IMG/VR virus record: IMGVR_UViG_3300035703_000003
Strand: one strand, 5' to 3'
DNA: 64,000 nucleotides
Source: a virus
Lineage: Duplodnaviria; Heunggongvirae; Uroviricota; Caudoviricetes
A program made the position numbers and the translations under genes. A model generated the notes under the pieces. It worked only from the letters and a program-made list of their open reading frames with translations, did no database searches and was not told the origin of the DNA. Positions 48,277 to 64,000 of this stretch are shown here, in pieces. Each line of letters begins with the position of its first letter. Position 1 is the first letter of the stretch.

Positions 48277-48543
48277 TCATTTGTCACTCGCTCCAAAGAA
48301 GAAGTTAATAATTGTTGACACTGCGGTACCTAATAAAAATCCTAAAATAATATTAGCAAAATTTACACCGTCTGGTGGTAGTGGAAAGAAAGTAACGCAA
48401 AAGAAATATATTACACTTACTATTCCCCAAAACCAAGCGAACCAATATGTAAAATGTGATGCTAATTTATCACCACGTCTTACTAGTTCTTCGTGTGCAT
48501 CTCGCAAACTGTTGTCTGTTGTGTCCATATTATCGTCTGACAT
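48277..48543 (-). CDS. Two-TM membrane protein, candidate holin
   Basis: Two hydrophobic helices; ATG overlaps the endolysin stop. Confidence 0.55.
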   Translation of the reverse strand: MSDDNMDTTDNSLRDAHEELVRRGDKLASHFTYWFAWFWGIVSVIYFFCVTFFPLPPDGVNFANIILGFLLGTAVSTIINFFFGASDK

Positions 48544-49415
48544 TATTTGATACCCATTGCTGCTAGTGTTTTTGGTCCTGCTACGCCGTCTGCTGTAAGA
48601 CCTTTGCTTGCTTGCCATTTTTTAAGTGCTGCTTCTGTGCCTGGACCAAAGTCACCATCGGCACCTACACCTAATACTGCCTGCATTTTCTTAACTAAGT
48701 CGCCTTTGCTGCCTTTCTTAAGTGTTGCTGTTGCTGCACTTTCACTTGCAGATTCTGCTACTGGCTTAAGTGTTACTTTACCACCGAACACTTCCATTGC
48801 TTTTTTATAACGTGATTGACGATCTGCTAACCCGATGTCACCGCCGTTGATGATTTTAGTCATCTTAACAACATCGCCTGTATCAGCAACATCATTCAGT
48901 TTCTTTGCGTTCCAGAACCAGCAAGCTGATTCAATTGCGCCTTTTTCTGTTGCAACATATTCTGCAGCTTGTTCTGCGGTCATATTAACACTCTTACCAA
49001 AGTTAGTGTAGTTCTCACGACCAGTAAGTTGTTTTAGACCACGACCACGGAATCTCCATCCGTCACCCTCTTTTACGTTACCCATCTTTGATGTGCGGAA
49101 TTCGTCCATGTAAACATAGTTTGCAATCTTTTCTGGATTCTTTGCATACTCGGCAGCATTACGCTTTCCTGCGCCAAAGTAACGTGGAAAAATCTTTAGT
49201 AGAGTTTCTTCTCTATAGTTCAAGTTTTCTTCTAGCGTCATAAAGTTTCCGCTTTCATGAGCGCATTGTGCGATAAAGCCAGCAACTCTTGCTTCTGTTA
49301 CGATATCATATTTCGGAAGAATGTCTGCAAGTGCATCGTACCACTCTTCGACTTTTTTATTTCCTGGTATTAATGCTGCTAAATGCTCTTTAGTAAAATT
49401 AAATTTAAATGCCAT
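48543..49415 (-). CDS. Endolysin: GH19 domain plus PG_binding_1 domain
   Basis: FIAQCAHES, EENLNY, FRGRG.KQLTG..NY, INGG..G..DR; LKKGSKG...DG.FGP.T..A...WQ...L..DG.AGP.T. Confidence 0.93.
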   Translation of the reverse strand: MAFKFNFTKEHLAALIPGNKKVEEWYDALADILPKYDIVTEARVAGFIAQCAHESGNFMTLEENLNYREETLLKIFPRYFGAGKRNAAEYAKNPEKIANYVYMDEFRTSKMGNVKEGDGWRFRGRGLKQLTGRENYTNFGKSVNMTAEQAAEYVATEKGAIESACWFWNAKKLNDVADTGDVVKMTKIINGGDIGLADRQSRYKKAMEVFGGKVTLKPVAESASESAATATLKKGSKGDLVKKMQAVLGVGADGDFGPGTEAALKKWQASKGLTADGVAGPKTLAAMGIK

Positions 49416-49450
49416 TATACTATTCCTTCTATAGCTTTAGTTCTTAGTAT

Positions 49451-50044
49451 TTATTTTACCCAGGCGCCGATCCGGCCGTGAATGTCTGGATAAACCCTAT
49501 ATTTGTAACCTTCTGGTGGATCAATCGATTGACCTTCCCATACAGGAATAAAATGTGTTGTGTTGCCTTCAAAGTCTTCGTTATGTCTAAAATGCACTTC
49601 AATGAGTTTACCGCCTATATATTCGCAGTTTATCCATTCGTATTTTTTTGAAAATTCTTTTAGTATAGTAGGCATCTTTAAACGGTCTGATACCCTAATC
49701 CAATGATCCCATTTTGTAAAAGTATTATTGCTTTTGTGTCCTTCTACTGCAAGAGTTTGTTTGCCCCAATGATAGTCTATGCTTAAATGTCTACCTTCGA
49801 ACCACTCACACCAAAAGTGTCCAACTGGCAAATGTGTAGTAGCTTTTTCTAACCATATTCTTTGTGCGCCTAAACCTAAACCCATCATATTAACACATGG
49901 TCTAACAATATAATAGCCTGGATGTGGAACCTCTAACCCCATCGGCCCGCAGTTATAATACATTTTTCTAGATAAGATAAGTTTGTCCATAACCCAAATA
50001 TCGTCGGGGTCTATATTTTTCCAAACTTCATCTTCTGCTGACAT
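49451..50044 (-). CDS. Hypothetical protein, ATP-grasp-like
   Basis: IVRP..N..G.G.GA, E.FEG...S.D, IEVHFR. Confidence 0.5.
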   Translation of the reverse strand: MSAEDEVWKNIDPDDIWVMDKLILSRKMYYNCGPMGLEVPHPGYYIVRPCVNMMGLGLGAQRIWLEKATTHLPVGHFWCEWFEGRHLSIDYHWGKQTLAVEGHKSNNTFTKWDHWIRVSDRLKMPTILKEFSKKYEWINCEYIGGKLIEVHFRHNEDFEGNTTHFIPVWEGQSIDPPEGYKYRVYPDIHGRIGAWVK

Positions 50045-50224
50045 TTAAAATCCGAGTTCTATGCCGCTATCTTGCCAACCCCAATGTTGATCGTTGGTTT
50101 TTTTGCAATGATCGCAATCACAATTATGGCAAACATCGTTACGACAATCTTTGCATTCACCACCACAATGGTGGCTGCACCCACAATTTTTGCAGGTGCA
50201 GCTTGAATGTTCTGTTATTTTCAT
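50045..50224 (-). CDS. Metallothionein-like Cys/His-rich protein (59 aa, not in track)
   Basis: MKITEHSSCTCKNCGCSHHCGGECKDCRNDVCHNCDCDHCKKTNDQHWGWQDSGIELGF: 11 Cys, 6 His; exactly fills the gap; GGAG upstream. Confidence 0.75.
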   Translation of the reverse strand: MKITEHSSCTCKNCGCSHHCGGECKDCRNDVCHNCDCDHCKKTNDQHWGWQDSGIELGF

Positions 50225-50227
50225 GTA

Positions 50228-52768
50228 TCACTCCATTACATAAACACGATAAGCGTCTTGTGACTTAGCCCATTTTGCGGCAGCTTTTTTCGCATCTGCA
50301 AAGCTACCTTGGAATTTAAATATCTCATCATCATCTGGCATGCCGTATTCACGTGTTGTAAACATCCACAGTGCAGAGTATCCAGGATCACGTGGTTTAC
50401 GACCATGCGATCTCATATGACGTGAGTAGTCTAATGTAACTGCTTCTTTTACTCTATCTTTTTTATCGTCTTTTTTATCAGCATTTTTTTGACTTTGCTC
50501 AATGCTTTTACGAATAATGTCTTGCGCTCGTGCCATTGCTCTTGCGTTGTGTCCTGACTTGGCTTTTGCTTCGGTTGAATTCCATTTGAGTCCACTGCTA
50601 GTAAAGACCCCTTCGTTACCGTCTTCACCGTCAATGACTTTTAATCCAATTGGATCTACTCCGTTTTTCTTAGCCATATCGATAAACTTTTGTTGCAACG
50701 GGTTGCCTGTTACATTTGCGCCGAAGTAATCATTCCATTGGTCTACTAATTTACCATCAACATATAGTTCTAGCATTGCAAAGTCTTCGCTGTAGTCGTA
50801 CCATTGCTTCATATAGGTACCTTCTTCAGCTTCGTCAAGTTCGACTTCTTCGTTTGCAAACACATATTCTTTACTAGCAATTCTTCTTTTTATTTCTTTT
50901 TCTGCTGATCTGTCGTGCTTGGCTACCTTCATTAACTTGTTGTGCGACCAGTTTTTAGCAGTAGCCGATTTATCAGATCTCCAATCAGCTTTTGTATCTG
51001 TCAGATTCTTACCGTAATATTCATCGTCGGCTGCTTTGCGACGCTTTGCATGGTCGCTGCTTTCTGCTACACCTTGATTTGAAGTTTTGCACTTAGGGCA
51101 AAAGCCGTTGTTCTTTTCCCATGCTTTAGCAGTTGATACTTCGTCGCACTTGACACAAGCAATTTTTTCTACGGCTTCGTTAAATGTTGATTCTTCTAAT
51201 TTAGAAATGTCGCCTTTTAGTAAGTCAAACTCTCTAGCAGCATCTGCAGCACCTTTGCCTGTGCGTTTCATCCATGCTTTTGCTTTTCTAATTGCGACTT
51301 GGCGCTTTTGTTCTGCACGGTTAACGGCTGCACCTAGTGTAGCTTTGTCTTCTTTCATATCACGAGTATTCTTCATACCGCTGTAGTCATTGTCCAGCTC
51401 TTTGAATTCTTCGTATGAAAGATACATATCAGTGTCACGGTCATAATATGAGCCTTCCTTTGGATCGTAGTAAACAACTTTACCACTTAGTGTCATGAAC
51501 GGACCTTCTAGGCCAGGAATTTCGTCATAACGTTCTTTATCAATGCTCTTTATTGTTTTATAACCTTCTTTTTGGACACTTTCGAATCCACGGGTGCTGC
51601 CATCCATTACACCAGGAGTTGGTGACATTTCACGACGGCCAACATTTGACGCTGGTCGTCTTTGTGGTCTTATACTAGTTGTTGGTGCAAGGTTTGAGCC
51701 TGCAGCGGGTGTGTTTGATTTTGTAAGGTTGTCAGGTCTTGCTTTCGGACCTGGTATATCTGTCATAAACTTGGCCCCTGCGCCCGGCTCTACTGCACCG
51801 CTTGGCCATTCATAGCCGCCGCCCGGTAAACTTCTGCCAGGTCTTGCAACCGGGCGTATACTAGTTTTTGGTGCTTCTTCTGTTGCTGCCATTGGTCTAG
51901 GCATTGGTCTCGCACTTGCTGCAGGTGCATTTGATTTTCTGTTAGCCATATTAGTTCCTACTCTTGTTCCTATTTGTGATCCAATTGATCCGCCGATCAT
52001 TCCGCCTACTGGACCTGCAATTGCGCTGCCTGCCATACGTCCAATTTGACCGCCTACCATAGATCCTACCATTCCTGGTCTTTGATTAGGCATTCCAGTT
52101 GACGATGCTGCTGTGGATTTTCTGATAACTGATGGATTCATTGTAGGAGTAGGAGCTTCTGACATCACAGTAGTAATCATTTGTGTAGTGTCTAGTGTAG
52201 GACCTTCGTTTAACTGTGACCACCCTGTAACATTAAATGTATCGTTTTCAAAGATAGTTAGCATACGAAGTCTATCTTTGTCGTTTGCAGTTAGATTGGG
52301 ATATGATTCAACAACTTGCTTCCAATCAGCAATGTGTGCTATTTCTTTAACAGCACTTTCTGATAAGTTACGCTTATTGTAGTATAAATTACTTTGTTCT
52401 TTAGCAACGCTTTCGCTTATTTGATTTTTTACAACAATATTGCTTACCATTTTAGCTTCAGAAACTTTTTTGTATTCGTCGAGAGCGGGCTTGAATCTTT
52501 TTAGAGTATTTTCATACTCTGCTAGCATACGATTGCTTTCTATAACATAAAGTTTGTTATTATCTTTGTATAAGTTAAGATATTCTAAAATACTGTTGTG
52601 CCAGTATGTTCTTGCAGTGTTCCATTTAATAAGACCATGTGCATAACATTCAAAAATGCTATACATATGTGCAGCTACTTTATGATAATCTCTGCCACTT
52701 TCTAAGTATAAAGCTCTGGACTTTTTACTTTCTTTTATAATTTCGTATGCTAATTCTAACTTTTTCAT
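50228..52768 (-). CDS. Large mosaic protein, putative protease-processed head/internal polyprotein
   Basis: 846 aa; Gly-zipper, Pro-rich and CxxC..CxxC segments separated by LNE, FNE, VAE, LDE, VKE; upstream ATAAATA. Confidence 0.65.
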   Translation of the reverse strand: MKKLELAYEIIKESKKSRALYLESGRDYHKVAAHMYSIFECYAHGLIKWNTARTYWHNSILEYLNLYKDNNKLYVIESNRMLAEYENTLKRFKPALDEYKKVSEAKMVSNIVVKNQISESVAKEQSNLYYNKRNLSESAVKEIAHIADWKQVVESYPNLTANDKDRLRMLTIFENDTFNVTGWSQLNEGPTLDTTQMITTVMSEAPTPTMNPSVIRKSTAASSTGMPNQRPGMVGSMVGGQIGRMAGSAIAGPVGGMIGGSIGSQIGTRVGTNMANRKSNAPAASARPMPRPMAATEEAPKTSIRPVARPGRSLPGGGYEWPSGAVEPGAGAKFMTDIPGPKARPDNLTKSNTPAAGSNLAPTTSIRPQRRPASNVGRREMSPTPGVMDGSTRGFESVQKEGYKTIKSIDKERYDEIPGLEGPFMTLSGKVVYYDPKEGSYYDRDTDMYLSYEEFKELDNDYSGMKNTRDMKEDKATLGAAVNRAEQKRQVAIRKAKAWMKRTGKGAADAAREFDLLKGDISKLEESTFNEAVEKIACVKCDEVSTAKAWEKNNGFCPKCKTSNQGVAESSDHAKRRKAADDEYYGKNLTDTKADWRSDKSATAKNWSHNKLMKVAKHDRSAEKEIKRRIASKEYVFANEEVELDEAEEGTYMKQWYDYSEDFAMLELYVDGKLVDQWNDYFGANVTGNPLQQKFIDMAKKNGVDPIGLKVIDGEDGNEGVFTSSGLKWNSTEAKAKSGHNARAMARAQDIIRKSIEQSQKNADKKDDKKDRVKEAVTLDYSRHMRSHGRKPRDPGYSALWMFTTREYGMPDDDEIFKFQGSFADAKKAAAKWAKSQDAYRVYVME

Positions 52769-52814
52769 TTTTGTTTCCTGTGAACTTGTTATTATTTATT
52801 AAAATAGTCGATTA

Positions 52815-53990
52815 CTATTTGCCCGAAACAGTTCTCGATAATTCTAATGGATCGGCAATCGGTAATAATGGGGATTTCAAAGTAGGTATATTCAATCCGC
52901 CGCCGCCAGCTGGTCTTTTCCTTGTATTACCTGGAGGTGTATTTTGCGTTTGTGTTCTAGGCGCAGTTTGTGTTCCGGGTGTAGTTTGTGTTCCGGGTGT
53001 AGTTTGTGTTCCGGGTGTAGTTTGCGTTCTGGGTGCAGGTACTGGTGTGATAGGTGCTGTCCCTGGCGCAGGTACTGGTGTAATAGGTGCTGGTTCTGGT
53101 GTAATAGGTTCGGGTCCTGGTGCAGGCTCAGGTTCTCTTACTGGAGGTGTCTCTATTTCTGGTTCAGGTTCTCTTACTGGAGGTGTCTCTATTTCTGGTT
53201 CAGGATCTCTTACTGGAGGTGTCTCTATTTCTGGCGCCGGTGAATCAGGAATAATTACAGGCGGCTCGTTTGTATTTGGAGATTCTGGCGGTGCTGTCTG
53301 CGGTATAATTACAGGCGGCTCATCTTCTCTGGGTAGAACCGGCGGTTCGTCTCGGGTTGGTCCTTCTGGTGCCTCAGGTTCAAATGGCATGTCTTCGGGC
53401 CACCAGTCTGGTTGAGTTACAGGAATGTCAACAGGTTCTGCGTCGGGAGCAAATGCAGTAGTATCTCTAGACAATATTCTACTAGCTTCTTCTGCTGCGT
53501 TATACTCATCGGACTGTCTAGGGTCAGGCCAATTACCGTCTTCAATTTGTTGTTTTTCTACTTCTGACATTGCAGCAACACTTGCATTAACCATATCCAC
53601 GTATGCTTGTGGATTATTTTTTAGAAGATCTCGCTGAAATTCATATGCAATTTGTGCCGATGAACCCAGATATTCACTGCCCTCACCTGCGGGATCCGGA
53701 GTAAGTATTAATCCGATTGCGCCTAATGCCCTACCCAATACACCTTTAAATAATGATCCTGAATTAACTCTTACATTGGCTCCTGGTGCTGCGTTCATAT
53801 TTGCGGCTGCTTGACGAGCTAAATCTGGATTGTTATTTAAAAATTGAGTTAATGCGTTTTGAACGGAAGGTGGCTTCAAACTAGGATTTTGAGTTCCCAA
53901 AAAGTTAACAATCTGTGCAACATTTGGTGCAGCTTGCTCTGCTAACTTTTTTTTATCTTTATTGTTTTCAAACAACTCGTTTATACGCAT
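52815..53990 (-). CDS. Pro/Glu-rich tagged protein (MRINELFE)
   Basis: N-terminal tag, Pro repeats, C-terminus shared with 54034..55413. Confidence 0.75.
   Translation of the reverse strand: MRINELFENNKDKKKLAEQAAPNVAQIVNFLGTQNPSLKPPSVQNALTQFLNNNPDLARQAAANMNAAPGANVRVNSGSLFKGVLGRALGAIGLILTPDPAGEGSEYLGSSAQIAYEFQRDLLKNNPQAYVDMVNASVAAMSEVEKQQIEDGNWPDPRQSDEYNAAEEASRILSRDTTAFAPDAEPVDIPVTQPDWWPEDMPFEPEAPEGPTRDEPPVLPREDEPPVIIPQTAPPESPNTNEPPVIIPDSPAPEIETPPVRDPEPEIETPPVREPEPEIETPPVREPEPAPGPEPITPEPAPITPVPAPGTAPITPVPAPRTQTTPGTQTTPGTQTTPGTQTAPRTQTQNTPPGNTRKRPAGGGGLNIPTLKSPLLPIADPLELSRTVSGK
52966..53025. repeat. 18 bp tandem repeat (TQTTPG), about 3 copies
   Basis: gtttgtgttccgggtgta repeated. Confidence 0.85.
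53131..53233. repeat. 36 bp tandem repeat (PEIETPPVREPE), about 3 copies
   Basis: tctcttactggaggtgtctctatttctgg recurs at period 36. Confidence 0.85.
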
Positions 53991-54033
53991 TTTTAGATTT
54001 CCTCGTTCGGTATATTATTAACTATTCTTTAGA

Positions 54034-55413
54034 TTATGGTCTATTAGGAACAACTCTCGATAATTCCAATGGATCGGCGATCGGTAATAACGGAGATTTC
54101 ATATAAAGAGTCGGCATGCCAAACCCTCGAGTAGTGCGAGGTTGTGAACGAGGTCGTGTGCGTTGTGTTGTGCGATTTCTTCCGTTGGGGTTATTTTTCG
54201 GATCACTCTTCGTTCTCAGATCGGGCTGTTCTAGCGGGTCAGTCTTACGTGATGGATCATTAAATCTTACTGGGGGATTAAACTCAGTTGATGGCAGTGG
54301 CTGAGTAATAGTTCCCGGCTCTGCTGCGGGGTCCGGAGTTTTTTCGTCTGGATCGCCTTGGTCATCGTCATCAGTTTGTGGGTTAAATGGCACTGGCCTT
54401 AGCGGCAACGGAAAAGTCGGTATATTTGTATCTGGCTTTGTCTCATCTGGCTTTGGCTTTATTTCTGCCGGCTTTGGATCTGTCTCTGCCGGCTTTGTTT
54501 CGTCCGGCTTTGGATCCGTCTCATCTGGCTTTGGTTCATCTGGCTTTGGATCCGTCTCATCTGGCTTTGTCTCATCTGGCTTTGGATCTGTCTCTGCTGG
54601 CTCTTCGTCTTCTTTATCAGGTTTTCGTGGAATCCAACGCACCGGTGGCGGAATACCATCATCTGGCTTCGGTTCGATTCGGTTCGGGCCGGGGGTATTG
54701 TCTGGCTCCGGGTCTGGTTTTTGTGGCTCTGGATCTTTTCGTGTCGGACTGTCAGGTGCATCTGGATTGTAAGGTATACCTTCAGGCCACCAATCTGGTT
54801 TGACATCTGGTTTAGGAATTGTTATAGGGTCGTCTGGATAAGGTGTTGCAGGAGCATCAGGTGCATCCGGTTCTATTACTGGTGCATCGGGCTCTATTAC
54901 TGGTGCATCCGGTTCTTTTACAGGTGCTTCAAATCTTGATATTGTATTCCAGGCAGAAATAGCATTTCTCTGTGCAGGAGTTAGTTTAGTTGTCTCTGTA
55001 TTTTTTATGCTATCTAAATAGTCTTGTATGTTATCTATATCAATCTCTTTAGAATTTTGTAGTGCAGAAAATGTATTAACTGCCGTTTGAGATAACTTAT
55101 CAATAAATTCTTTATTAGCTTTTTTAGTTTCAGCATCATAATCAACATCTGGACCGGATATGTAATTATAGAGATTCACAAAGGCCTTTAATACACCGCC
55201 ATGCTTCCCTACATTACGTATTAGTGCCCGACGGCCTGCATACCCGAGTCCAAATGCTATTAATTCTAGTGTGCCTGCGATAATAGGTGGTACCGCTGCT
55301 ACCGCATACTCGTTAAGTTGACGACCTTCAGTTAATGAGGATTTTTTAGCGATCTTATTGCTCTTAATCGATTCATTTATGTTTTTTGTTTTGTTAAGAT
55401 CGCTTATACGCAT
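54034..55413 (-). CDS. Pro/Asp-rich tagged protein (MRISDLNK)
   Basis: GAGG RBS before the ATG at 55413; KPDETDP repeats. Confidence 0.75.
   Translation of the reverse strand: MRISDLNKTKNINESIKSNKIAKKSSLTEGRQLNEYAVAAVPPIIAGTLELIAFGLGYAGRRALIRNVGKHGGVLKAFVNLYNYISGPDVDYDAETKKANKEFIDKLSQTAVNTFSALQNSKEIDIDNIQDYLDSIKNTETTKLTPAQRNAISAWNTISRFEAPVKEPDAPVIEPDAPVIEPDAPDAPATPYPDDPITIPKPDVKPDWWPEGIPYNPDAPDSPTRKDPEPQKPDPEPDNTPGPNRIEPKPDDGIPPPVRWIPRKPDKEDEEPAETDPKPDETKPDETDPKPDEPKPDETDPKPDETKPAETDPKPAEIKPKPDETKPDTNIPTFPLPLRPVPFNPQTDDDDQGDPDEKTPDPAAEPGTITQPLPSTEFNPPVRFNDPSRKTDPLEQPDLRTKSDPKNNPNGRNRTTQRTRPRSQPRTTRGFGMPTLYMKSPLLPIADPLELSRVVPNRP
54432..54600. repeat. Degenerate 15/21 bp repeats encoding KPDET(DP)
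   Basis: tcatctggctttg recurs repeatedly. Confidence 0.8.
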
Positions 55414-55414
55414 T

Positions 55415-55867
55415 TTAGATTTCCTCGGCTGGCAAGTCGTTAACAATTTGAGCAGGATATTCGTTCATTGCAAGATATTCCATATAATTTCTTACACTGT
55501 TGATATAATCTGATGCTTTAGTGATTTTTGATTGCACCCAAGGTTCTAAATTGTCAGTGTCTTGTATCATACCGTGTAACTGAATTGCATCTTTTGCAAG
55601 TTTGTATAACTCGCTCTTTGCCATCCAACCATCTTCGTCACCGTCATCTAATACGCCTTCCATGATTTCACTCATGTAAACTACTGGCTCACGACCTTCT
55701 TTTAGTTCTGCGCTGTGACGCTTCATCCAGGCTTTTGCAACATCGATGTCTTCGAACACTTTACGTTCGACGCCATTGATGTCTAATACTTTATATGTGT
55801 TAGCACTTTCTTTAATTAACATTGGTGTAGCAATGACTTTTGCTGTTTGAATTTTATCTAGTCTCAT
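55415..55867 (-). CDS. Tagged hypothetical protein
   Basis: MRLDKI start; C-terminal module MAKSELY...LEPWVQSKITKA.DY follows IME. Confidence 0.7.
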   Translation of the reverse strand: MRLDKIQTAKVIATPMLIKESANTYKVLDINGVERKVFEDIDVAKAWMKRHSAELKEGREPVVYMSEIMEGVLDDGDEDGWMAKSELYKLAKDAIQLHGMIQDTDNLEPWVQSKITKASDYINSVRNYMEYLAMNEYPAQIVNDLPAEEI

Positions 55868-56067
55868 GGGACTCTCCGAATCATATTTGTGTATACTGGG
55901 GATTGAACTGTAGCATCCTTGCTTTCAAGTCCGACAGCTTTGCGGGCAGCTTTGTGATGTGCTTTGCCTTTTTTACCTGTGAATAGAGGCATTGCAACGG
56001 CAGCAATACTACCTGCTCCTGTTGCACCTGCGCTTGCTTCTTCTTTTACAATTTCCCAGACTTTCAT
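55864..56067 (-). CDS. Small tagged protein (MKVWEIVKE)
   Basis: Tag followed by EASAGATGAGSIA; ATAAATA 5 nt upstream. Confidence 0.7.
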   Translation of the reverse strand: MKVWEIVKEEASAGATGAGSIAAVAMPLFTGKKGKAHHKAARKAVGLESKDATVQSPVYTNMIRRVP

Positions 56068-56124
56068 ATACTTATTTATTCAGGTATAAGTATTTGATAT
56101 ATTACAAATCTTTAAGGACAACGC

Positions 56125-57201
56125 ATGAAAATAGCTATAATGTTAACCGGGCTTTTAATAGATAAGGTTGACACCCTGCCACATATTAAAAAAATGTTTG
56201 ATTACATAGCGGCAAAGAATAATTTAGCAATTGATTATTATTGCCACTTTTGGGCTCCGGAAAACATGTATCCATACCATATCGACTATCATGCAACAAA
56301 AATTGCTGTTCCGTGGGAAAATCAAGGTAGTATAAATCACGCAATAGATATTTTTAAACCAATAAGTTATAAGGTAAGCAAATATTCAGAGATATTGCCG
56401 TATTTTGAAAATTATACAATTAGCTTATCAAAACATGACAAATGGCTAAACGAGGCGTTTAGTGATGCAGAGATGTTTGTCAATCACAACATACACAAAA
56501 GATTCTTTGTAGATAATTTTGAAGACCCCATTACTATATTCAACAAATGGTGGACTTATCATATTAACTGGTGTCAGTTTATTCATTATACTGCTCAGGT
56601 ATACAGTGTAAGTGAATTGATGAAAATAGTATCATCTAGCAACACAGATTATGATGCTGTTATAAAATGGAGATTTGATGTACTGTTCGATTATAAAAGT
56701 TTCGAATCGATGATAGTTGATCTCATTCGTAATATTAAGGATGATAATGCATTATATACAGAACTCGCTTGGGAGGGAATACAATGGACAGCCGATCTGA
56801 GATCGGATATTAATAATGTCGATAATAAACTAATAAGCCTACACGATGGCTGGTGGATAACAAACAAAGAAGTTAATAAAATCATGGCTAATAATTATCT
56901 CAACTGTTATATGTCGGACATGTGTAACACAGTAGGAAAAGAAGCTGGAACACACACATGGCATTATAACGGCGTAGTTAAGTGTGGTCTATATATTAAA
57001 TTAATTGGTAGAATAAATCATACAATCATAAGATTTCCTGCTAAAATACCACACGACTGGCACGAAAATACATCTAGTTATTATCCTCACTTATGGAATT
57101 CGCAATTTATCGCCAAAAAAGATAGTGATTTTAAAATGTCTTTACAATATTGGGACAAACGATCTCAATATTATACTATAAAACATTTTGATTTTTATTA
57201 A
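56125..57201 (+). CDS. Putative glycosyltransferase-like protein
   Basis: MKIAI.LTG, DYYCHFW, YDAVIKWRFD; paralog of 57176..58054. Confidence 0.55.
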   Translation: MKIAIMLTGLLIDKVDTLPHIKKMFDYIAAKNNLAIDYYCHFWAPENMYPYHIDYHATKIAVPWENQGSINHAIDIFKPISYKVSKYSEILPYFENYTISLSKHDKWLNEAFSDAEMFVNHNIHKRFFVDNFEDPITIFNKWWTYHINWCQFIHYTAQVYSVSELMKIVSSSNTDYDAVIKWRFDVLFDYKSFESMIVDLIRNIKDDNALYTELAWEGIQWTADLRSDINNVDNKLISLHDGWWITNKEVNKIMANNYLNCYMSDMCNTVGKEAGTHTWHYNGVVKCGLYIKLIGRINHTIIRFPAKIPHDWHENTSSYYPHLWNSQFIAKKDSDFKMSLQYWDKRSQYYTIKHFDFY

Positions 57202-58054
57202 AATTTTCATAATCTTCTTTTAGTAACTTAAAAGTCATTTGACTCATATCGTGGTTATTCCTTAACACTGTTGAATCAAACGCAGTAGGCCATGTTACCG
57301 AAAAACTTAACCAGTTAGTTTTACTATACGCACTTGTTTTCATCCATACCCAGTGTTGTAATATTGATTTGTAGTCTCCGACTTTTAAATCATAAAACAA
57401 TGGTTTGTGCTCTGTTACCAACTTAAAACAATGTTCTTTAAGATTTTTGCTATAGTTATACCAAGGCGTCGGTAAAGAAATAAAGCAAAAATCTCCGATG
57501 TGTGGAGTTCCGCTTTCAATGTATAACCATGGTGCCATTACTTTATCTCTAAACACTGGATTTCTGTGCATATTACTAAATGCTGCTAGCCATTCAGATT
57601 CTGAAATGTTATTTAATATAGTATCACTCCGGGTTCGCAAGACAACATCGTACATACCTTCTAAATTACCGGTCATTGAGGTCATGCCGTTGATAGCTAA
57701 GTATTGTCCGAAAAAATTAAAGCTATAGTCTGATATATGAGCTTCGTTAGTTTCAAATAAAATACTATGCCTTACGTTGTCAGGAATAAGATCTAAGTAA
57801 CGATTATCCTTAACATTATACGCTTTTACATTTCTGATAAACTCAGTCATAACGCTTTTGTAATCAGCGACATGATAACGAACAGGAGCGTATGTGTTTT
57901 CGATACGTTGTTTTAGATTCGGAGAACCGTCGTCCCAAAAATAGCAATAATAATCAACCTTTATATTATTATTTGCAAATACTTTATTTTTATACCACCA
58001 AGAGCCTTCTTCTAAGAATCTCGGTTGACCAGTGACTAGTATTGCTACCCGCAT
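57176..58054 (-). CDS. Putative glycosyltransferase-like protein
   Basis: MRVAILVTGQPR, DYYCYFW, YDVVLRTRSD. Confidence 0.6.
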   Translation of the reverse strand: MRVAILVTGQPRFLEEGSWWYKNKVFANNNIKVDYYCYFWDDGSPNLKQRIENTYAPVRYHVADYKSVMTEFIRNVKAYNVKDNRYLDLIPDNVRHSILFETNEAHISDYSFNFFGQYLAINGMTSMTGNLEGMYDVVLRTRSDTILNNISESEWLAAFSNMHRNPVFRDKVMAPWLYIESGTPHIGDFCFISLPTPWYNYSKNLKEHCFKLVTEHKPLFYDLKVGDYKSILQHWVWMKTSAYSKTNWLSFSVTWPTAFDSTVLRNNHDMSQMTFKLLKEDYENFNKNQNVL

Positions 58055-58062
58055 ATAACCTC

Positions 58063-59253
58063 TTAATTTAACGGCAATTCGGGATTCGGTGTTGTGAAGT
58101 TCTTTTTACGCATTACTGTTTTAGCAACTAAGTCTAGCACTTGACTGTGTGAATCCCAATTTAACACAAAAGGAACGTTAATATCAGAACGCATGTCCTT
58201 GATAACAGCTTGTGCATCAGGACCCATTTGTGCAATCTTTTTACCATAATTAATATACGTGTCTTTGAATAAAATTGCAAGTTCTTTTATTGTGATTTGT
58301 TTCATGTTTCTTTCATCGTTAACACGGTCAAGGAAGTGACGTGTAAATTCTACGTCAATGCCTAACTTTCTAAACAGTTGGTCTAGATACTTTTCTAGTG
58401 TGTCTAACTGAACTTGTGTAATTTGCGGATTGTCTTCTTCATTTATGCCGTATTTGCTTACATATAGTTTTTCTAATTCACGTGGACTTAATCCAGCTGC
58501 GAAACTGTTTGCGATACGGAATGCATAATCACCTAACGAATGTCTTTCGCCCTTGCTTTTTACAAGTCTATGCATTGCTTCTAGTGCTGCATTGATTAGT
58601 TTTTCTTTTGCTTTTACGTTATATTCTTCTCTGTTCATTTCGCTTACATCTCTCACTGTTCTGATGCTACCATCATGGTTTACGAAATATGCTGAAAATT
58701 TCACATTAGGATATTCTTGTTGTAGTTTGTTAAACACTTTCAAGTTAGTCATACTATCGTCATACATTCTAACACGACCGTATTTTCCCGTATCCAAATA
58801 ACGTCTTACAAAAACAGCTTTTTTCTCTGCAGGTATTGCATTACTTCTAATATTACCCGCTCTATGCACATGTATTAAGTCTATATTAATACCATGTTGT
58901 CTAAATGTATCTAGGAAAAGATCTTTGTCATCGAAATCTTCTCTTGCAGTTAACATAATAACTTTACTATCGCCTGCGTTCTGCAATATAGCATTTAGTT
59001 TTGCTATCATTGGTTTCATAGGCTCGCTTTCTTTATTAAACTTCTCTGCATTTCTGAATTCGCCAAAGTCAAACTCTTCGCCGGGCTGCAATTCATAATT
59101 GTTGAATTGTTGATTGTCTAATGTTTTTACTACATTACCATCCTTTACTACTTTTATCTTAGCAGTAGTATGGAATAATGTATCATCAATATCAAATATG
59201 GTTAATCCTAAGTTAGAATCACCATAAGCCTCGAAAAGTTCTTTTAATCTCAT
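58063..59253 (-). CDS. Tagged mosaic protein: HAD phosphatase plus C-terminal putative nuclease-like module
   Basis: MRLKELFE; FDIDDTL, LTAR, K, YDDS; FTRHFLDRVNDERN after INE. Confidence 0.75.
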   Translation of the reverse strand: MRLKELFEAYGDSNLGLTIFDIDDTLFHTTAKIKVVKDGNVVKTLDNQQFNNYELQPGEEFDFGEFRNAEKFNKESEPMKPMIAKLNAILQNAGDSKVIMLTAREDFDDKDLFLDTFRQHGINIDLIHVHRAGNIRSNAIPAEKKAVFVRRYLDTGKYGRVRMYDDSMTNLKVFNKLQQEYPNVKFSAYFVNHDGSIRTVRDVSEMNREEYNVKAKEKLINAALEAMHRLVKSKGERHSLGDYAFRIANSFAAGLSPRELEKLYVSKYGINEEDNPQITQVQLDTLEKYLDQLFRKLGIDVEFTRHFLDRVNDERNMKQITIKELAILFKDTYINYGKKIAQMGPDAQAVIKDMRSDINVPFVLNWDSHSQVLDLVAKTVMRKKNFTTPNPELPLN

Positions 59254-59266
59254 TTATCTAAATCCT

Positions 59267-60166
59267 TTAACGGCGTGTTGTGTTTGATGGCGGTGTCAAC
59301 GGTCTAGATGTGCCGCCAGGTCTTGCGGCTTGACCTGGACCTGCTACTGTTCCGCTTGGATTGAATCTCGGAGTTCCGGGTAATGGATTTGGATTTATTG
59401 TTCCCCCAGGTCTTGCGGCTTGACCTGGACCTGCTACTGTTCCGCTTGGATTGAATCTCGGAGTTCCGGGTAATGGATTTGGATTTATTGTTCCCCCAGG
59501 TCTTGCGGCTTGACCTGGACCTGCTACTGTTCCGCTTGGATTGAATCGTGTAGGTGGTACATTACTGCTAGCTGGTGGTCTTGCTGCGTCTAAGCCATCT
59601 TGATAACCACGTCTACGTTGTAATTCTGTGTTGCCGTCTCCTCGCCCGCCTGTTGCTGGACTAGCTGCTGGCATACTACCCTGGGCGCCAACTGTTGGTC
59701 TTGCTCCGCCTTGCGCTCTGTTTAACGCAGACATAGTTTGATCACCGGCAATTCCGTCTACTTGTAAACCAAAATCTGTTTGAAATTGTTTAACCGCGGC
59801 GGCAGTTCTTGGACCAAATTTTCCATCTGCTCCGGTGTCTCCAAGATCATAACCTTTGTCTATCAACATTTGTTGAAGGCCGCTTACATCAGAACCAGAC
59901 GAGCCACGTCTTAGATTTGAAGTAGTTGTCCCAGGAGCTCGTACACCTGTGGGTGCTCCACTAGTCGATTGATCAGGTCTAGTTGGTTGTCCCCGAGTTA
60001 TAGGCCCGCTAACTTCTTGGCCTGGTCTAGCTGGTAATCCTCTGAATACAGGCCCGCCAGGTCTTGCACTTTGTCCTGGTCCAGCCACTGTTCCGTCGGG
60101 ATTAAAATTCGGAGTTCCCCTGCCGGCAGGTAATGCTGGTCTTTCAAATAAATCTTTCAATCTCAT
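59267..60166 (-). CDS. Tagged Pro/Gly-rich protein with PG_binding_1 domain
   Basis: MRLKDLFE; LRRGSSG.DV..LQ..L...GY.....DG.FGP.T..AVK.FQ...GL.VDGIAG..T. Confidence 0.82.
   Translation of the reverse strand: MRLKDLFERPALPAGRGTPNFNPDGTVAGPGQSARPGGPVFRGLPARPGQEVSGPITRGQPTRPDQSTSGAPTGVRAPGTTTSNLRRGSSGSDVSGLQQMLIDKGYDLGDTGADGKFGPRTAAAVKQFQTDFGLQVDGIAGDQTMSALNRAQGGARPTVGAQGSMPAASPATGGRGDGNTELQRRRGYQDGLDAARPPASSNVPPTRFNPSGTVAGPGQAARPGGTINPNPLPGTPRFNPSGTVAGPGQAARPGGTINPNPLPGTPRFNPSGTVAGPGQAARPGGTSRPLTPPSNTTRR
59316..59547. repeat. 90 bp tandem repeat, about 2.6 copies (30 aa unit)
   Basis: ccaggtcttgcggcttgacc at 59316, 59406 and 59496. Confidence 0.92.
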
Positions 60167-60402
60167 TTTGTTTTTTTCTCCCGGACCAGATCGTCCTTGT
60201 ATTCTTCTATGTAGTATTCTAGTGATTTATCACCACTACATATTTCAAAGTTTTCATTATTTATTGTTTTGCCTCTTATAAGATTTTTAGTTTTTTTGTC
60301 AATACTCTTAACATGTATTACCATGTCCTTATCCTGATGCTTATAATAAATTATATGCTGCGGATTAAAGTATCTCCAAATCTTTTTAAAAAACAATTTC
60401 AT
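60163..60402 (-). CDS. Small hypothetical protein
   Basis: ATGA-coupled on both sides. Confidence 0.6.
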   Translation of the reverse strand: MKLFFKKIWRYFNPQHIIYYKHQDKDMVIHVKSIDKKTKNLIRGKTINNENFEICSGDKSLEYYIEEYKDDLVREKKTK

Positions 60403-61811
60403 TTCTCACGACCTGCTTTCATATTAGCAAGCCAGTGTGCCATACGCTGCTTTTCGCCTGAACTATTTTTAGCTGTTTTTCGCAAATCACTAACACTGGC
60501 TTTGGTATTTACACCCATACGCTTTGCCAGACCTTTGCGCCCTGGATTTTTACCATCTGCAAAGTTTTCATTTGTTTTTTCTACAGGGAAATATGCTTTA
60601 ATAGTTTTACCCATACGTTGCGCTGCGGCTGCACGATGGTTGCCATCAATTACACTGTACTTACCGTCACTAAACTGTGGTCCTACAATAATTGGTGCGC
60701 TTAGGTCAACACGATGACTGTAGTCGATATCTACAATACGATCAAATGGATCATCATAGTCGAAGAATTCTTCCTCACTTGGGAACATGTCTGGGGTAAA
60801 GTTTCCAAGTTGCCAATCATGAGCTAAGATGAACCGATCCATGTCTTTGTTCATACCAGCATCGTGATGCATACCTCTGAAGATTTTCAGCATTTCTTTG
60901 CCAGATTCTTCAGCTAATCCTTCTCTAGCCGCCGCTGCTTTTTCATCACTAGTATCGCCGGTAACCTTGTATGTTTTACCGTTTACACTAAATTCTTTTT
61001 TACCTGCTTTGATAGCATTCATACGTGCATCAGTAAATGGGTTTGATTCGTTAATATTGTCTGATAATAGATTAACAATTTTAGGCAATAGAGACTGATT
61101 CCTTGTAGCTTCTGGCAAGTCGCTATCTTTCATTGGTCTAATGCCTTTTATTTTTACATGCTCATTCTTTTCAAAACGTTTAATAAACTTCTCAACGGGC
61201 AATGGGCCGTCATAGTCAATTAATGTGTTTCCAAGTTTAACTGCAGCGTGATCTGCGTTGCCACGATCATTAATAAGAACCACTATATCTCCACCGTGTA
61301 TTTTTTGTAATGCTTGTGCTACTAATACACATCCACCATCAAACGGACCACAATCTTCGGGTTCTAAAATGTCATAAATGTTTTCTTTTGCTTCATTAGT
61401 AAGATCATGTGCAACCTTAAGTGCTGCTGGACCTTGTGGATGTCTTGGATTGATACTAACAACATCGCCGTTCATAAGATCACTGACGCTGGCACTCTTG
61501 CCTATTTTGTCTAACAGTTGATGTAACTTATCCTCAGGATCATAACCGTTTGTCTCGTATCCTAGTTTACCACGCACTTCAGTTCGCTTGCCTGTTTGTT
61601 TGTTTAAAATATGTAGGACTAGCATACCTGCACGGTTGTCACGCTCCAGTTGTAACATGTAACTATTGCCACTGCTTTCTTTAAGATAAGGTAAACTGAA
61701 CCACAGCTTAAACCAATCGTCTGTTCCTGGCTTTACTTTCTTTTCACGCTCGATGTCACGCAAACGCTTGCTTGTATGACTAATATTTTCTGATATTTCG
61801 TTTATTTTCAT
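60399..61811 (-). CDS. Tagged mosaic protein with Cys-His-Asp and ParB/Srx-like modules
   Basis: MKINEISE; GGC..HA..ID; PIIV...VIDGNHR. Confidence 0.72.
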   Translation of the reverse strand: MKINEISENISHTSKRLRDIEREKKVKPGTDDWFKLWFSLPYLKESSGNSYMLQLERDNRAGMLVLHILNKQTGKRTEVRGKLGYETNGYDPEDKLHQLLDKIGKSASVSDLMNGDVVSINPRHPQGPAALKVAHDLTNEAKENIYDILEPEDCGPFDGGCVLVAQALQKIHGGDIVVLINDRGNADHAAVKLGNTLIDYDGPLPVEKFIKRFEKNEHVKIKGIRPMKDSDLPEATRNQSLLPKIVNLLSDNINESNPFTDARMNAIKAGKKEFSVNGKTYKVTGDTSDEKAAAAREGLAEESGKEMLKIFRGMHHDAGMNKDMDRFILAHDWQLGNFTPDMFPSEEEFFDYDDPFDRIVDIDYSHRVDLSAPIIVGPQFSDGKYSVIDGNHRAAAAQRMGKTIKAYFPVEKTNENFADGKNPGRKGLAKRMGVNTKASVSDLRKTAKNSSGEKQRMAHWLANMKAGREK

Positions 61812-62173
61812 TTCGCCAGACCTAAGTTAAACAATGTATTTGTTGTGCTAGTATTTAACAGTTTTGGCTTGCCGTCGCCTCCGAAAAACTTTTTAGCTTG
61901 ACGCTCAGTTTCACCGGGCTTAACATCGACTGTAGTATTAACACCAGGAACAATTTTACCATCTTCATCTACACGCTTGCCACGCTTACCGTAAGCACCG
62001 CCTGCATACCACTCACACCATCCGTTTGGGTCTATGTTACCTGCAACTGCACTACATTTGTTAGGATCTCTCCACATTGTGCAGTTAATACATTTTTGTC
62101 CGTTCTTAGGATCAGGCTGATAACCTGCTTCAGCCTTAGACCCTTTCCCTTCAAATAGCTCATGTATTCTCAT
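61808..62173 (-). CDS. Tagged protein with HiPIP (high-potential iron-sulfur) domain
   Basis: MRIHELFE; YQ..PK.GQKCINC......C..V.G.I.P.GWC..Y. Confidence 0.82.
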   Translation of the reverse strand: MRIHELFEGKGSKAEAGYQPDPKNGQKCINCTMWRDPNKCSAVAGNIDPNGWCEWYAGGAYGKRGKRVDEDGKIVPGVNTTVDVKPGETERQAKKFFGGDGKPKLLNTSTTNTLFNLGLAK

Positions 62174-63366
62174 CTTGGTCCTACTCCCATTGCCGTTGGC
62201 GGTGTTCCAGTTGATGGTTTAGGTTTAGGAGGAGTGATAGGCTTTGGTGCAGACTTGGGGGGAGTTAATCCGGTCCCTGTTCTATCTTGTGCGCCCATCG
62301 GTGTTGGACTTCCTGACCCTGTAGTTAGTTTAGGTATATTAGTCGGAGTAGTTGGGGCCACTCTCGGTGTTGGACTAACAGGTCTAGTAGGTAAACTTAC
62401 GTTGTTAAAGATTTCTCGCATAGCACTTAATGTTTGCACGCCTGCTATACCATCAACTTGTAGACCGTAATCTTGTTGAAACTTTCTTACCGCTGCAGTT
62501 GTATTCCCGCCATAACGACCGTCGACTCCCTGATCGCCTACAGTATATCCTAATGTTGTAAGACCTTTTTGTAAAGTTTTAACACTGTCTAATGGAACAC
62601 CTTCTGCTCTGTAATCTCTTTTAAGATTTATTGCTCCACTAGGACCTGGCAACTTACTAACATCAATTTTAGGGATAACTTTAGGTGGTATAACGTTTAC
62701 TCTAGCAGGAATACTTGTAAATGGATTTGGAACGGCATTCGGGGGAGTTAACTTGGGACGTTCTAAGTTCGGTGCGGACATAGTAGACACTGTTGTTCTA
62801 AACGCAGATGGTGATGTATAATTTGGCCCAGCTGTAGTTAATGCTCTATCTAATGTATTATATCCTGCTGATAAGTTTGCATATCCATCTGCACTGTAAT
62901 TAGGATCAGTGCGACGCCATCTAATATAGTTGTCTCCTAATACTTCTGCTGCAGTGTTAGGGTCAATATCAGGATTTCCTAAAAATTCGGTTGCAGTTCT
63001 ACGATATGACGGCTCGTTTTCCATTTCATATCTAACAAACTTTGCTTGTGCATCTAATGTTTCTTGTCCGGGTATAAGATTTCCGCTATTATCTATCCGG
63101 CCTTGGTCGTTCATAAATCTCATAAATGAATCATGACGTGGTCCTTGCCAGCTAATCATACCTGCATTGCTAGCACGATTGTATGGATCTGTATGCGTTC
63201 CATACAAATATCTGTCTTGAAAACTATTTTCTCTATTAACCTCTGCAGTAAGAGCTCTTGCTTGAGCATCACTAAATCCTGCATTAGTAAATGCATTATA
63301 AACGCCCAATGCGTTTGCTTCACGACTAGTTAATTCTCCTGCTTCGAACAGTTCTTTTAATCTCAT
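62170..63366 (-). CDS. Tagged protein: phage-tail-lysozyme-like domain plus PG_binding_1
   Basis: MRLKELFE; GFS..QA.AL.....RENS...G...W.G.R...Q..F...E; VDG.YG..T..AVR.FQ...GL.VDGIAG..T. Confidence 0.78.
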   Translation of the reverse strand: MRLKELFEAGELTSREANALGVYNAFTNAGFSDAQARALTAEVNRENSFQDRYLYGTHTDPYNRASNAGMISWQGPRHDSFMRFMNDQGRIDNSGNLIPGQETLDAQAKFVRYEMENEPSYRRTATEFLGNPDIDPNTAAEVLGDNYIRWRRTDPNYSADGYANLSAGYNTLDRALTTAGPNYTSPSAFRTTVSTMSAPNLERPKLTPPNAVPNPFTSIPARVNVIPPKVIPKIDVSKLPGPSGAINLKRDYRAEGVPLDSVKTLQKGLTTLGYTVGDQGVDGRYGGNTTAAVRKFQQDYGLQVDGIAGVQTLSAMREIFNNVSLPTRPVSPTPRVAPTTPTNIPKLTTGSGSPTPMGAQDRTGTGLTPPKSAPKPITPPKPKPSTGTPPTAMGVGPR

Positions 63367-63370
63367 TTTA

Positions 63371-64000
63371 TTATCCTGCTAGTATAGTTAATAGTTGTAG
63401 TATTGCTTCTGGATGCATCGATTGTCTTGGTGTAGCTAACAGTTGAATTTCTGTTCGCATTTTGTCTGCGTCTTCTGGACTTACTCCACGGCTTTCTAGT
63501 TTGTCGATAAGATTGTTAATTTTATTTAAATCAATCGGGAGTGGTGGTTGCTCTTGTTCTCCTGCTTCTGTTGCAAAGGATCTTAATTTTCTTGCTATTT
63601 TAGGGTCTCTTAGTAATCTTAACGCTTTTACTCCTAGTTGGCCGACACGGCCATCGCTTATTCCCAATACATTTGCTATTTGTGTATTTGTCATAGGATT
63701 ATTAAATGGTTCAATTCCAAACTGTGCTTTAAGTATTAGTGCGTATCGGCGTGGTAATTGATCTATTGCTGCATGTATTTCTTTTGTTAGTTCTTCACGA
63801 TTTACTGTATCGAATTGGTCAGCATCATAGCTACCGGTGGGGAAATCAACTTGTGTGCCTTTAACAGTAATGTCTCTTTTACTAATACTTTTACTGTTAG
63901 GCACTCTGCCCCCGATAGTAGTGTTGCGGTATGTTTCGCTGTCTGGATTGTATAACGCCATTACCTGCTTATCACTAAATGTTTCTGATAAATCTCTTAG
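63371..64000 (-). CDS. Tagged protein with sigma70 region 4 HTH domain; 5'-truncated
   Basis: Frame is open to the window end (LRDLSETFSDKQV before the listed Met); LP.R...IL...FGI.....T..QIA..LGIS..RV.QL..KALR.LR. Confidence 0.78.
   Translation of the reverse strand, partial: LRDLSETFSDKQVMALYNPDSETYRNTTIGGRVPNSKSISKRDITVKGTQVDFPTGSYDADQFDTVNREELTKEIHAAIDQLPRRYALILKAQFGIEPFNNPMTNTQIANVLGISDGRVGQLGVKALRLLRDPKIARKLRSFATEAGEQEQPPLPIDLNKINNLIDKLESRGVSPEDADKMRTEIQLLATPRQSMHPEAILQLLTILAG

Follow-up and report, generated by a model that had tools for sequence, protein, structure and literature searches.

The window analysed here is a 64,000-nucleotide stretch of DNA from a tailed virus of the class Caudoviricetes (IMG/VR record IMGVR_UViG_3300035703_000003). 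Between positions 50,228 and 64,000 it carries an array of mostly unrelated, co-oriented genes whose protein products begin with closely similar short sequences, referred to below as the tag. The tag is probably a capsid-targeting propeptide of the T4 type that is removed by a prohead protease, and the genes that bear it would form a late, highly variable array of an aquatic, uncultured jumbo phage of about 360 kb with a T4-type head. Because the tag is a shortened form of the peptide that loads proteins into the T4 head, the array proteins are most likely packaged cargo.

The shared start is present far beyond chance, and it is selected at the protein level. The initial annotation had quoted nine co-oriented genes with tag-like starts, and all nine starts are found at their genes on the minus strand. 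It had also read the sequence ..LRDLSE as a tag in the open reading frame (ORF) that reaches the window edge. The overlapping Logan contig L001 completes this ORF (63371-64000), gives its full start as MKLRDLSE and adds two more tagged genes upstream; the array therefore has at least 13 members. The tag was sought in all 597 open stretches of 45 codons or more that begin with ATG on either strand of the window. The strict pattern M-[RK]-[ILVF]-x-[ED]-[ILV]-x(1-2)-E has 7 matches against 0.05 expected from composition, and all 7 are minus-strand starts of array genes between 52.8 and 63.4 kb. A looser six-residue core pattern has 10 matches against 0.84 expected; nine of these are array starts, and the tenth is an internal ATG outside the array. 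The other genes of the window begin without the motif.

In the tag, positions 3, 6 and 7 are hydrophobic, position 5 is acidic and position 8 is Glu. Synonymous codons vary from one tag to the next (CGT or AGA for Arg; TTG, CTT, TTA, CTA or CTG for Leu; GAG or GAA for Glu; TTT or TTC for Phe), and the DNA upstream of the tagged genes is unrelated from gene to gene, which shows that the tag is conserved as protein sequence. When the first 12 residues of 13 array proteins are removed, the remaining similarity is limited to one pair of paralogues (genes starting at 52815 and 54034) and to the PG_binding_1 domains of the genes starting at 59267 and 62170. Tags of the lineage as a whole are 8-13 residues long with Leu, Ile, Val, Phe or Met at P3; of 58 such tags, 31 have Glu at position 8 and 17 have Ala at position 9. 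In G011, a distant relative that is 85% complete, 21 of 455 genes match the tag loosely, most of them clustered.

For comparison, the T4 genes ipI-III, alt and 24 were translated from NC_000866. The starts of internal proteins IPI, IPII and IPIII, of gp24 and of Alt all have hydrophobic residues at positions 4, 7 and 8 and Glu at position 6. In IPII, IPIII, gp24 and Alt a second Glu follows at position 10, and the IPI leader extends to residue 19. The tags of the window have this core in common with the T4 propeptides, shifted by one position and with Glu directly at position 8, and the correspondence is close to letter for letter: I-N-E-L-F in the window, I-N-E-L-L in gp24 and I-T-E-L-F in Alt. 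In the T4 capsid-targeting sequence (CTS), residues 4 and 7 play a part in targeting and residues 8 and 10 in processing (PMC9026906). The CTS and the N-terminal propeptides of Alt and gp24 are removed by the prohead protease gp21 (Mullaney and Black 1996, cited in PMC9026906, PMC5694885). The propeptides of the T4 internal proteins are 10-19 residues long, and related phages have other proteins with CTS-like starts (PMC9026906). T4 also uses the propeptide route to load unrelated enzymes such as Alt into the head (PMC5694885).

The array and T4 have in common a short N-terminal tag, placed on unrelated proteins and ending in Glu with a hydrophobic P3, and one class of cargo in the window, enzymes that would act on the host, has a parallel in Alt. 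The two systems differ in several respects. The tag is 8 residues long rather than 10: it is one residue shorter before the first hydrophobic position, and its Glu follows the hydrophobic pair without a gap. A single array unites at least 13 tagged genes, whereas those of T4 are few and scattered. The predicted cargoes are large and modular, with internal candidate cut sites.

The form of the tag depends on the phage that carries it. Orthologues of the phosphatase cargo (58063-59253, see below) have the 8-residue tag in contigs of the jumbo lineage. In marine T4-like contigs the same cargo has the canonical 10-residue form, M-x-x-F-x-x-F-[IL]-x-E, which is found on neighbouring genes as well; two of these records are complete, and both encode Peptidase_S77, the gp21-type protease. 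That the tag follows the phage lineage and not the cargo is as expected of a signal matched to the phage's own assembly machinery, and it supports the proposed role.

The window record is a fragment; many relatives of the phage are present in IMG/VR. The family-B DNA polymerase of the window shares 43-48% identity with its counterparts in jumbo phages such as Phosso and CBB, and 95%, 80%, 77% and 75% with those of the relatives G001, G007, G006 and G008, respectively. In G001, G007 and G008 a tag array occupies the corresponding position, upstream of the endolysin and polymerase genes; in G006 only scattered tagged genes are seen because the contig ends about 5.7 kb upstream of the polymerase. 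Given the estimated completeness of G006 (198 kb, 55%) and G008 (151 kb, 41%), the complete genome would be about 360 kb long; public assemblies include contigs of 300-370 kb that belong to the lineage. A Peptidase_S77 prohead protease is encoded in G006, G008 (L144:6195-6836), G011, G012 and G013, and a Gp23 capsid protein in G006 and G008. G008 also encodes a T4 portal, a gp55-like late sigma factor and, at the position of gp22, a Glu/Lys-rich coiled-coil protein, and the more distant G011 has a scaffold protein that is about 52% identical. With head genes of the T4 type in G006 and G008, and a late sigma factor of this type in G008, the lineage is best described as a T4-superfamily jumbo phage; its head module is classically T4-like, and the late-promoter-like motifs described below extend the likeness. 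The cargo set varies among the relatives. Even G001 differs from the window in the sigma region 4 protein, in one Pro-rich paralogue and in module content.

The scaffold-like coiled-coil protein of G008 (L144:5096-6193) is unusually conserved for a scaffold, with more than 5600 database relatives at 70-99% identity. Its invariant start contains the tag core, I-D-E-L-L.

The arrangement of the cargo proteins around hydrophobic-x-Glu sites can be described in some detail for two families. The most widespread cargo, a protein of 118 residues encoded beyond the window edge (L001:1009-1365), has at least 8000 relatives. In 119 of 120 homologues a hydrophobic-[FWLY]-Glu sequence stands directly before the start of the conserved domain, with leaders ranging in length from 32 to 123 residues; in T4-like contigs it is the 10-residue tag that abuts this domain start. 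A structure model of the 118-residue protein was unusable (predicted local distance difference test score, pLDDT, of 44). The second family is that of the 470-residue cargo (60399-61811), which has more than 2100 homologues and has the tag at its start in 99 of the best 120. Hydrophobic/Thr-x-Glu sites at residues 45, 140, 255, 301 and 415 mark the limits of its modules. When the protein is aligned with 120 homologues, the boundaries of the alignment blocks pile up at residues 45-51, 140, 251-256, 296-303 and 414-415. Within 3 residues of an [LIVMFT]-x-Glu site lie 48% of the 418 boundaries, as compared with 10% for random sites, an excess that does not amount to a true probability because the sequences are related. 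The orthologue in G001 is 1148 residues long and has these modules reordered behind the same tag. These results fit processing at the sites in question and fall short of proof. The proposal of the initial annotation, that a portable tag resembling the T4 CTS is carried by diverse proteins, is supported by the match to the T4 propeptide motif, by the dependence of the tag type on lineage, by the head and late machinery of the relatives and by the hydrophobic-x-Glu junctions.

From this we infer that the proteins bind to the core, are cleaved, become part of the virion and are injected. The tag would bind each protein to the scaffolding core during prohead assembly. A gp21-type protease would then cut after the Glu of the tag, with the hydrophobic residue at P3, and the longer modular proteins would probably be cut at internal hydrophobic-x-Glu sites as well. 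The mature proteins would stay in the head together with the DNA and would probably leave with it at infection.

The timing of expression is suggested by the motif [TA]ATAAATA, the T4 late-promoter consensus. The motif is depleted in the window, with 6 copies against 17 expected. Five of the six lie no more than 40 nucleotides upstream of a start codon, and four of the six are in or beside the array. The sequence AATAAATA matches the motif at 56073-56080 on the minus strand, and others are found at 52793-52800, 49448-49455 and 60258-60265. The motif also stands before head-module genes and before tagged genes in G008 and G006. It is proposed, by analogy, that the array genes are transcribed late, together with the head genes.

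Several points weigh against the assignment of the tag as a T4-type propeptide. The case is built on a sequence pattern and comparative genomics, and whatever goes beyond these is inferred. Peptidase_S77 is seen in relatives only, the window record being a fragment. The starts MRISDLNK, MRLDKIQT and MKVWEIVKE are without Glu at position 8 and would need a cleavage site further in. The hydrophobic-x-Glu junctions could belong to the conserved domains instead of being cut sites, and the junction statistics come from related sequences that are not independent. The late promoters are identified by their likeness to T4.

It is unlikely, in our estimate, that the tag takes proteins into the virion or an assembly intermediate by a route other than that of T4-style head cargo; on such a view they might be loaded into the tail or baseplate, or the tag might persist uncleaved as an assembly handle. 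Two of the cargoes are cell-wall enzymes with domains found in tail proteins of cultured phages, and upstream of the array there is a gene weakly similar (7.5e-6) to the head-closure/connector family phrog_460, both of which would suit such a route. The motif, however, matches T4 head propeptides including the processing Glu, a conserved junction precedes the mature domains, and T4 is known to load enzymes such as Alt into its head (PMC5694885). The lysins themselves are in accord with virion loading by way of the propeptide: the catalytic domain of the tagged lysin occurs in virion proteins of cultured phages, and the GH19 endolysin of the window is untagged.

A still less probable role for the tag is that of a recognition leader or degron for another phage enzyme, such as a radical-SAM enzyme or the ClpAP protease. 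Genomes of the lineage contain 15-20 radical-SAM genes. None of these, however, is in or near any array, the distance being about 54 kb in G008 and at least 40 kb in the window, and in the T4-like genome G003, which is complete and has tags on these cargo families too, radical-SAM genes are absent altogether; together these findings make such a leader unlikely; moreover, the tag resembles T4 propeptides and not known degrons. It is scarcely tenable that the tag is shared because translation initiation or the mRNA requires it, or that it stems from a DNA repeat or a recombination cassette, since, although the tag codons are A/T-rich and the CTS region of T-even phages doubles as a recombination site for swapping ip genes, the residues here are kept while synonymous codons and upstream DNA are free to differ, the other genes of the window do without the motif, and the tag changes with phage lineage on the same cargo.

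Taken as T4-type head cargo, the array can be compared with other packaged protein sets. The ip loci of T-even phages are polymorphic and encode variable basic proteins with CTS-like starts (PMC9026906, PMC3012670). The array resembles them in that the cargo set varies even among close relatives while the tag is kept. It differs from them in that its cargoes are mostly multi-domain enzymes rather than small basic inhibitors, and in that it is a single contiguous late block beside the endolysin and replication genes. In phiKZ, 201phi2-1 and SPN3US, a gp21-related protease cuts many of the head proteins after Glu, the propeptides have several sites, and packaged enzymes are delivered to the host (PMC5694885, PMC7411985). 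Cutting after Glu, several sites and enzyme delivery are what is proposed here from sequence. In these three phages, unlike here, P3 is small (A/S/G-x-E) and the propeptides are mostly longer than 100 residues, without a short tag common to many proteins (PMC5694885); nor does the classically T4-like head module of the present lineage correspond to theirs. The ejection-protein signature of the phiKZ/SPN3US type was looked for and not found, P3 being Leu, Ile, Val, Phe or Met, the tags 8-13 residues long and the leaders 32-123 residues in one family.

A Sec or Tat signal peptide has a basic n-region followed by an uninterrupted hydrophobic h-region. A signal peptide of this kind was considered and rejected for the tag, which has 8 residues, is amphipathic and contains two acidic residues. 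Cellular HiPIPs carry a Tat leader at the N-terminus; in the HiPIP-like cargo of the array the tag occupies this place.

The mechanism itself is known from T4, and variable CTS-tagged proteins have already been described for T-even phages. What is specific here is the 8-residue form of the tag, an array so large and with such enzymes in it, and the presence of modular cargoes in which sites mark the junctions. In the literature searched, no description of such tag arrays in aquatic jumbo phages was found, and a near-identity DNA search of the array against cultured phages gave no match. If the tag functions as it does in T4, the capsid-borne proteins of an abundant group of aquatic, uncultured jumbo phages could be recognised by a simple rule of sequence. 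The group is large, judging from the more than 5600 relatives of the scaffold-like protein and the at least 8000 of one cargo. The candidate injected effectors would then include a sigma-70 region 4 protein, a HAD/PNK-type phosphatase, a cytidylyltransferase-like enzyme, a HiPIP-like iron-sulfur protein, cell-wall lysins and periplasm-spanning Pro-rich proteins. It would also follow that loading of the T4 type can work with a tag of reduced length and with cargoes that are large and modular, a property of use in engineering phage heads as protein carriers.

It is also possible, if rather doubtful, that the array encodes a set of injected proteins for whose prediction the sequence alone suffices, composed of shufflable modules parted by prohead-protease sites. 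The tagged cargoes might then be polyproteins, each loaded once and cut in the head into several independent effectors. The sigma-70 region 4 mimic might act on host RNA polymerase at time zero, and the phosphatase and nucleotidyltransferase might act against host defences before phage expression begins. Should this be true, the thousands of metagenomic homologues could be read as a catalogue of the effectors that phages inject in the ocean.

The individual genes of the array, all on the minus strand unless otherwise stated, are described below beginning at the window edge. The first is the sigma-70 region 4 cargo of 211 residues (63371-64000; L001:1947-2582; MKLRDLSE), whose start codon lies 6 nucleotides past the window edge. 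It matches Pfam Sigma70_r4 with 30.7 bits, and its residues 65-145 match region 4 of RpoD/SigA chains with an E value of about 1e-5. The next gene (62170-63366; MRLKELFE) combines a phage tail lysozyme domain (Pfam Phage_lysozyme2, 1e-11) with PG_binding_1 (2e-18). In cultured phages the Phage_lysozyme2 domain is part of tape-measure or tail-tip lysozyme proteins, and the cargo is likely to be a virion-borne cell-wall lysin for entry. It is followed by the HiPIP-like cargo with four Cys residues (61808-62173; 121 residues; MRIHELFE), which scores 24.5 bits against Pfam HIPIP, for which the cutoff is 22. The C-terminal module of this protein recurs in G008, G011, L003 and L011. A short module at about residues 66-104, found in G008, G007 and L011 as well, contains the sequence N-T-T-V-D-V-K-P. 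It sits behind different tags: in the HiPIP-like protein, in a 66-residue protein and at the start of a 490-residue protein.

The 470-residue modular cargo (60399-61811; MKINEISE) has a C-terminal module that is weakly ParB/Srx-like. Its AlphaFold model is poor (pLDDT 55.6), the ParB/Srx rows given by Foldseek are weak (E 0.2-0.7), and no match to it was found in cultured phages or PDB sequences. A conserved untagged ORF of 79 residues (60163-60402) follows inside the array and contains the late-promoter-like AATAAATA at 60258-60265. This small protein has a basic, aromatic N-terminus, and its gene is kept just upstream of cargo genes in G001, L003, L004 and L008. The PG_binding_1 cargo (59267-60166; MRLKDLFE; Pfam 3e-19) has Pro/Gly-rich repeats of 30 residues and an isoelectric point (pI) of 11.7; the repeats are encoded by a 90-bp tandem repeat at 59309-59547 with 2.7 copies that are 98% identical. 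The phosphatase cargo (58063-59253; MRLKELFE) is of the HAD/PNK type with a DxDxT motif (phrog_415, 2e-7). Its conserved C-terminal domain (phrog_23027, 2e-26) has unannotated homologues in phiM12 and Melnitz.

An untagged gene for 292 residues (57176-58054; phrog_13607) comes next. It belongs to virus-only Atlas clusters, a few of them with DUF7796, and it is kept inside the tag arrays of G001, G007 and L011; its product may act on or with the cargo. On the opposite strand, a gene for 358 residues (56125-57201, plus strand) is convergent with it and overlaps it by 26 nucleotides. This gene has no family match, and it looks like a recent insertion because it is absent at this place in G001, the relative with 95% identity.

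The small basic tagged protein (55864-56067; MKVWEIVKE; 67 residues, pI 10.7) has AATAAATA 13 nucleotides upstream of its gene, and both the gene and the motif are also found in G001. Resembling the T4 internal proteins in size and charge, it is a candidate for an abundant internal protein. The acidic cargo of 150 residues (55415-55867; MRLDKIQT) has its next hydrophobic-x-Glu at residue 20. It is present in 8 of 10 relatives searched, G006 and G003 being the exceptions, and an Atlas look-up returned only unnamed virus-only clusters. The two Pro-rich paralogues have a conserved C-terminal peptide in common. The first (54034-55413; MRISDLNK, ATG start) has I-N-E at residue 14, a hydrophobic segment and TonB-like Pro/Glu/Lys repeats; the second (52815-53990; MRINELFE) is a Pro-rich repeat cargo. 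Coding tandem repeats with periods of 18, 21 and 36 bp give rise to the Pro-rich TonB-like tracts of both; together with a hydrophobic segment, which both paralogues have, these tracts suggest ejection proteins that span the periplasm.

A protein of 846 residues (50228-52768) is a probable further member of the array, with AATAAATA 32 nucleotides upstream of its gene. Its first 13 residues end in E-I-I-K-E, which corresponds to the T4-like E-hydrophobic-hydrophobic-x-E, and its relatives have different starts that nonetheless end in I-I-x-E or L-I-L-A-E. A cytidylyltransferase-like enzyme was verified among the cargoes. With respect to the functions that the initial annotation had assigned, the HiPIP, sigma-70 region 4, HAD/PNK-type phosphatase, phage tail lysozyme and PG-binding labels agree with Pfam, PHROG or PDB sequence matches; the ParB/Srx-like label is weak, and that of a Cys-His-Asp enzyme was not supported. 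Beyond the array, the endolysin (48543-49415; GH19 and PG_binding_1) is a lysin that does not bear the tag, and it provides an internal control.

Some features at the borders of the array, and one in a relative, may be added. Between the array and the endolysin, a Cys/His-rich protein of 59 residues with several CxxC-type pairs (50045-50224, minus strand) adjoins a gene for 197 residues (49451-50044), and this neighbourhood is kept in G001, G007, G008 and L011. At the other end, a perfect 7-bp inverted repeat (CCCTCGG ... CCGAGGG) with an A/T-rich loop is found at L001:950-1008, past the window edge at about 64945-65003. It immediately precedes the first tagged gene and could be a terminator or a regulatory hairpin. 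In G008, a tagged protein of 646 residues (146525-144588, minus strand) has an internal tag-like sequence 502 codons in, with its ATG at 145025, which may be a relic of the fusion of two tagged genes.

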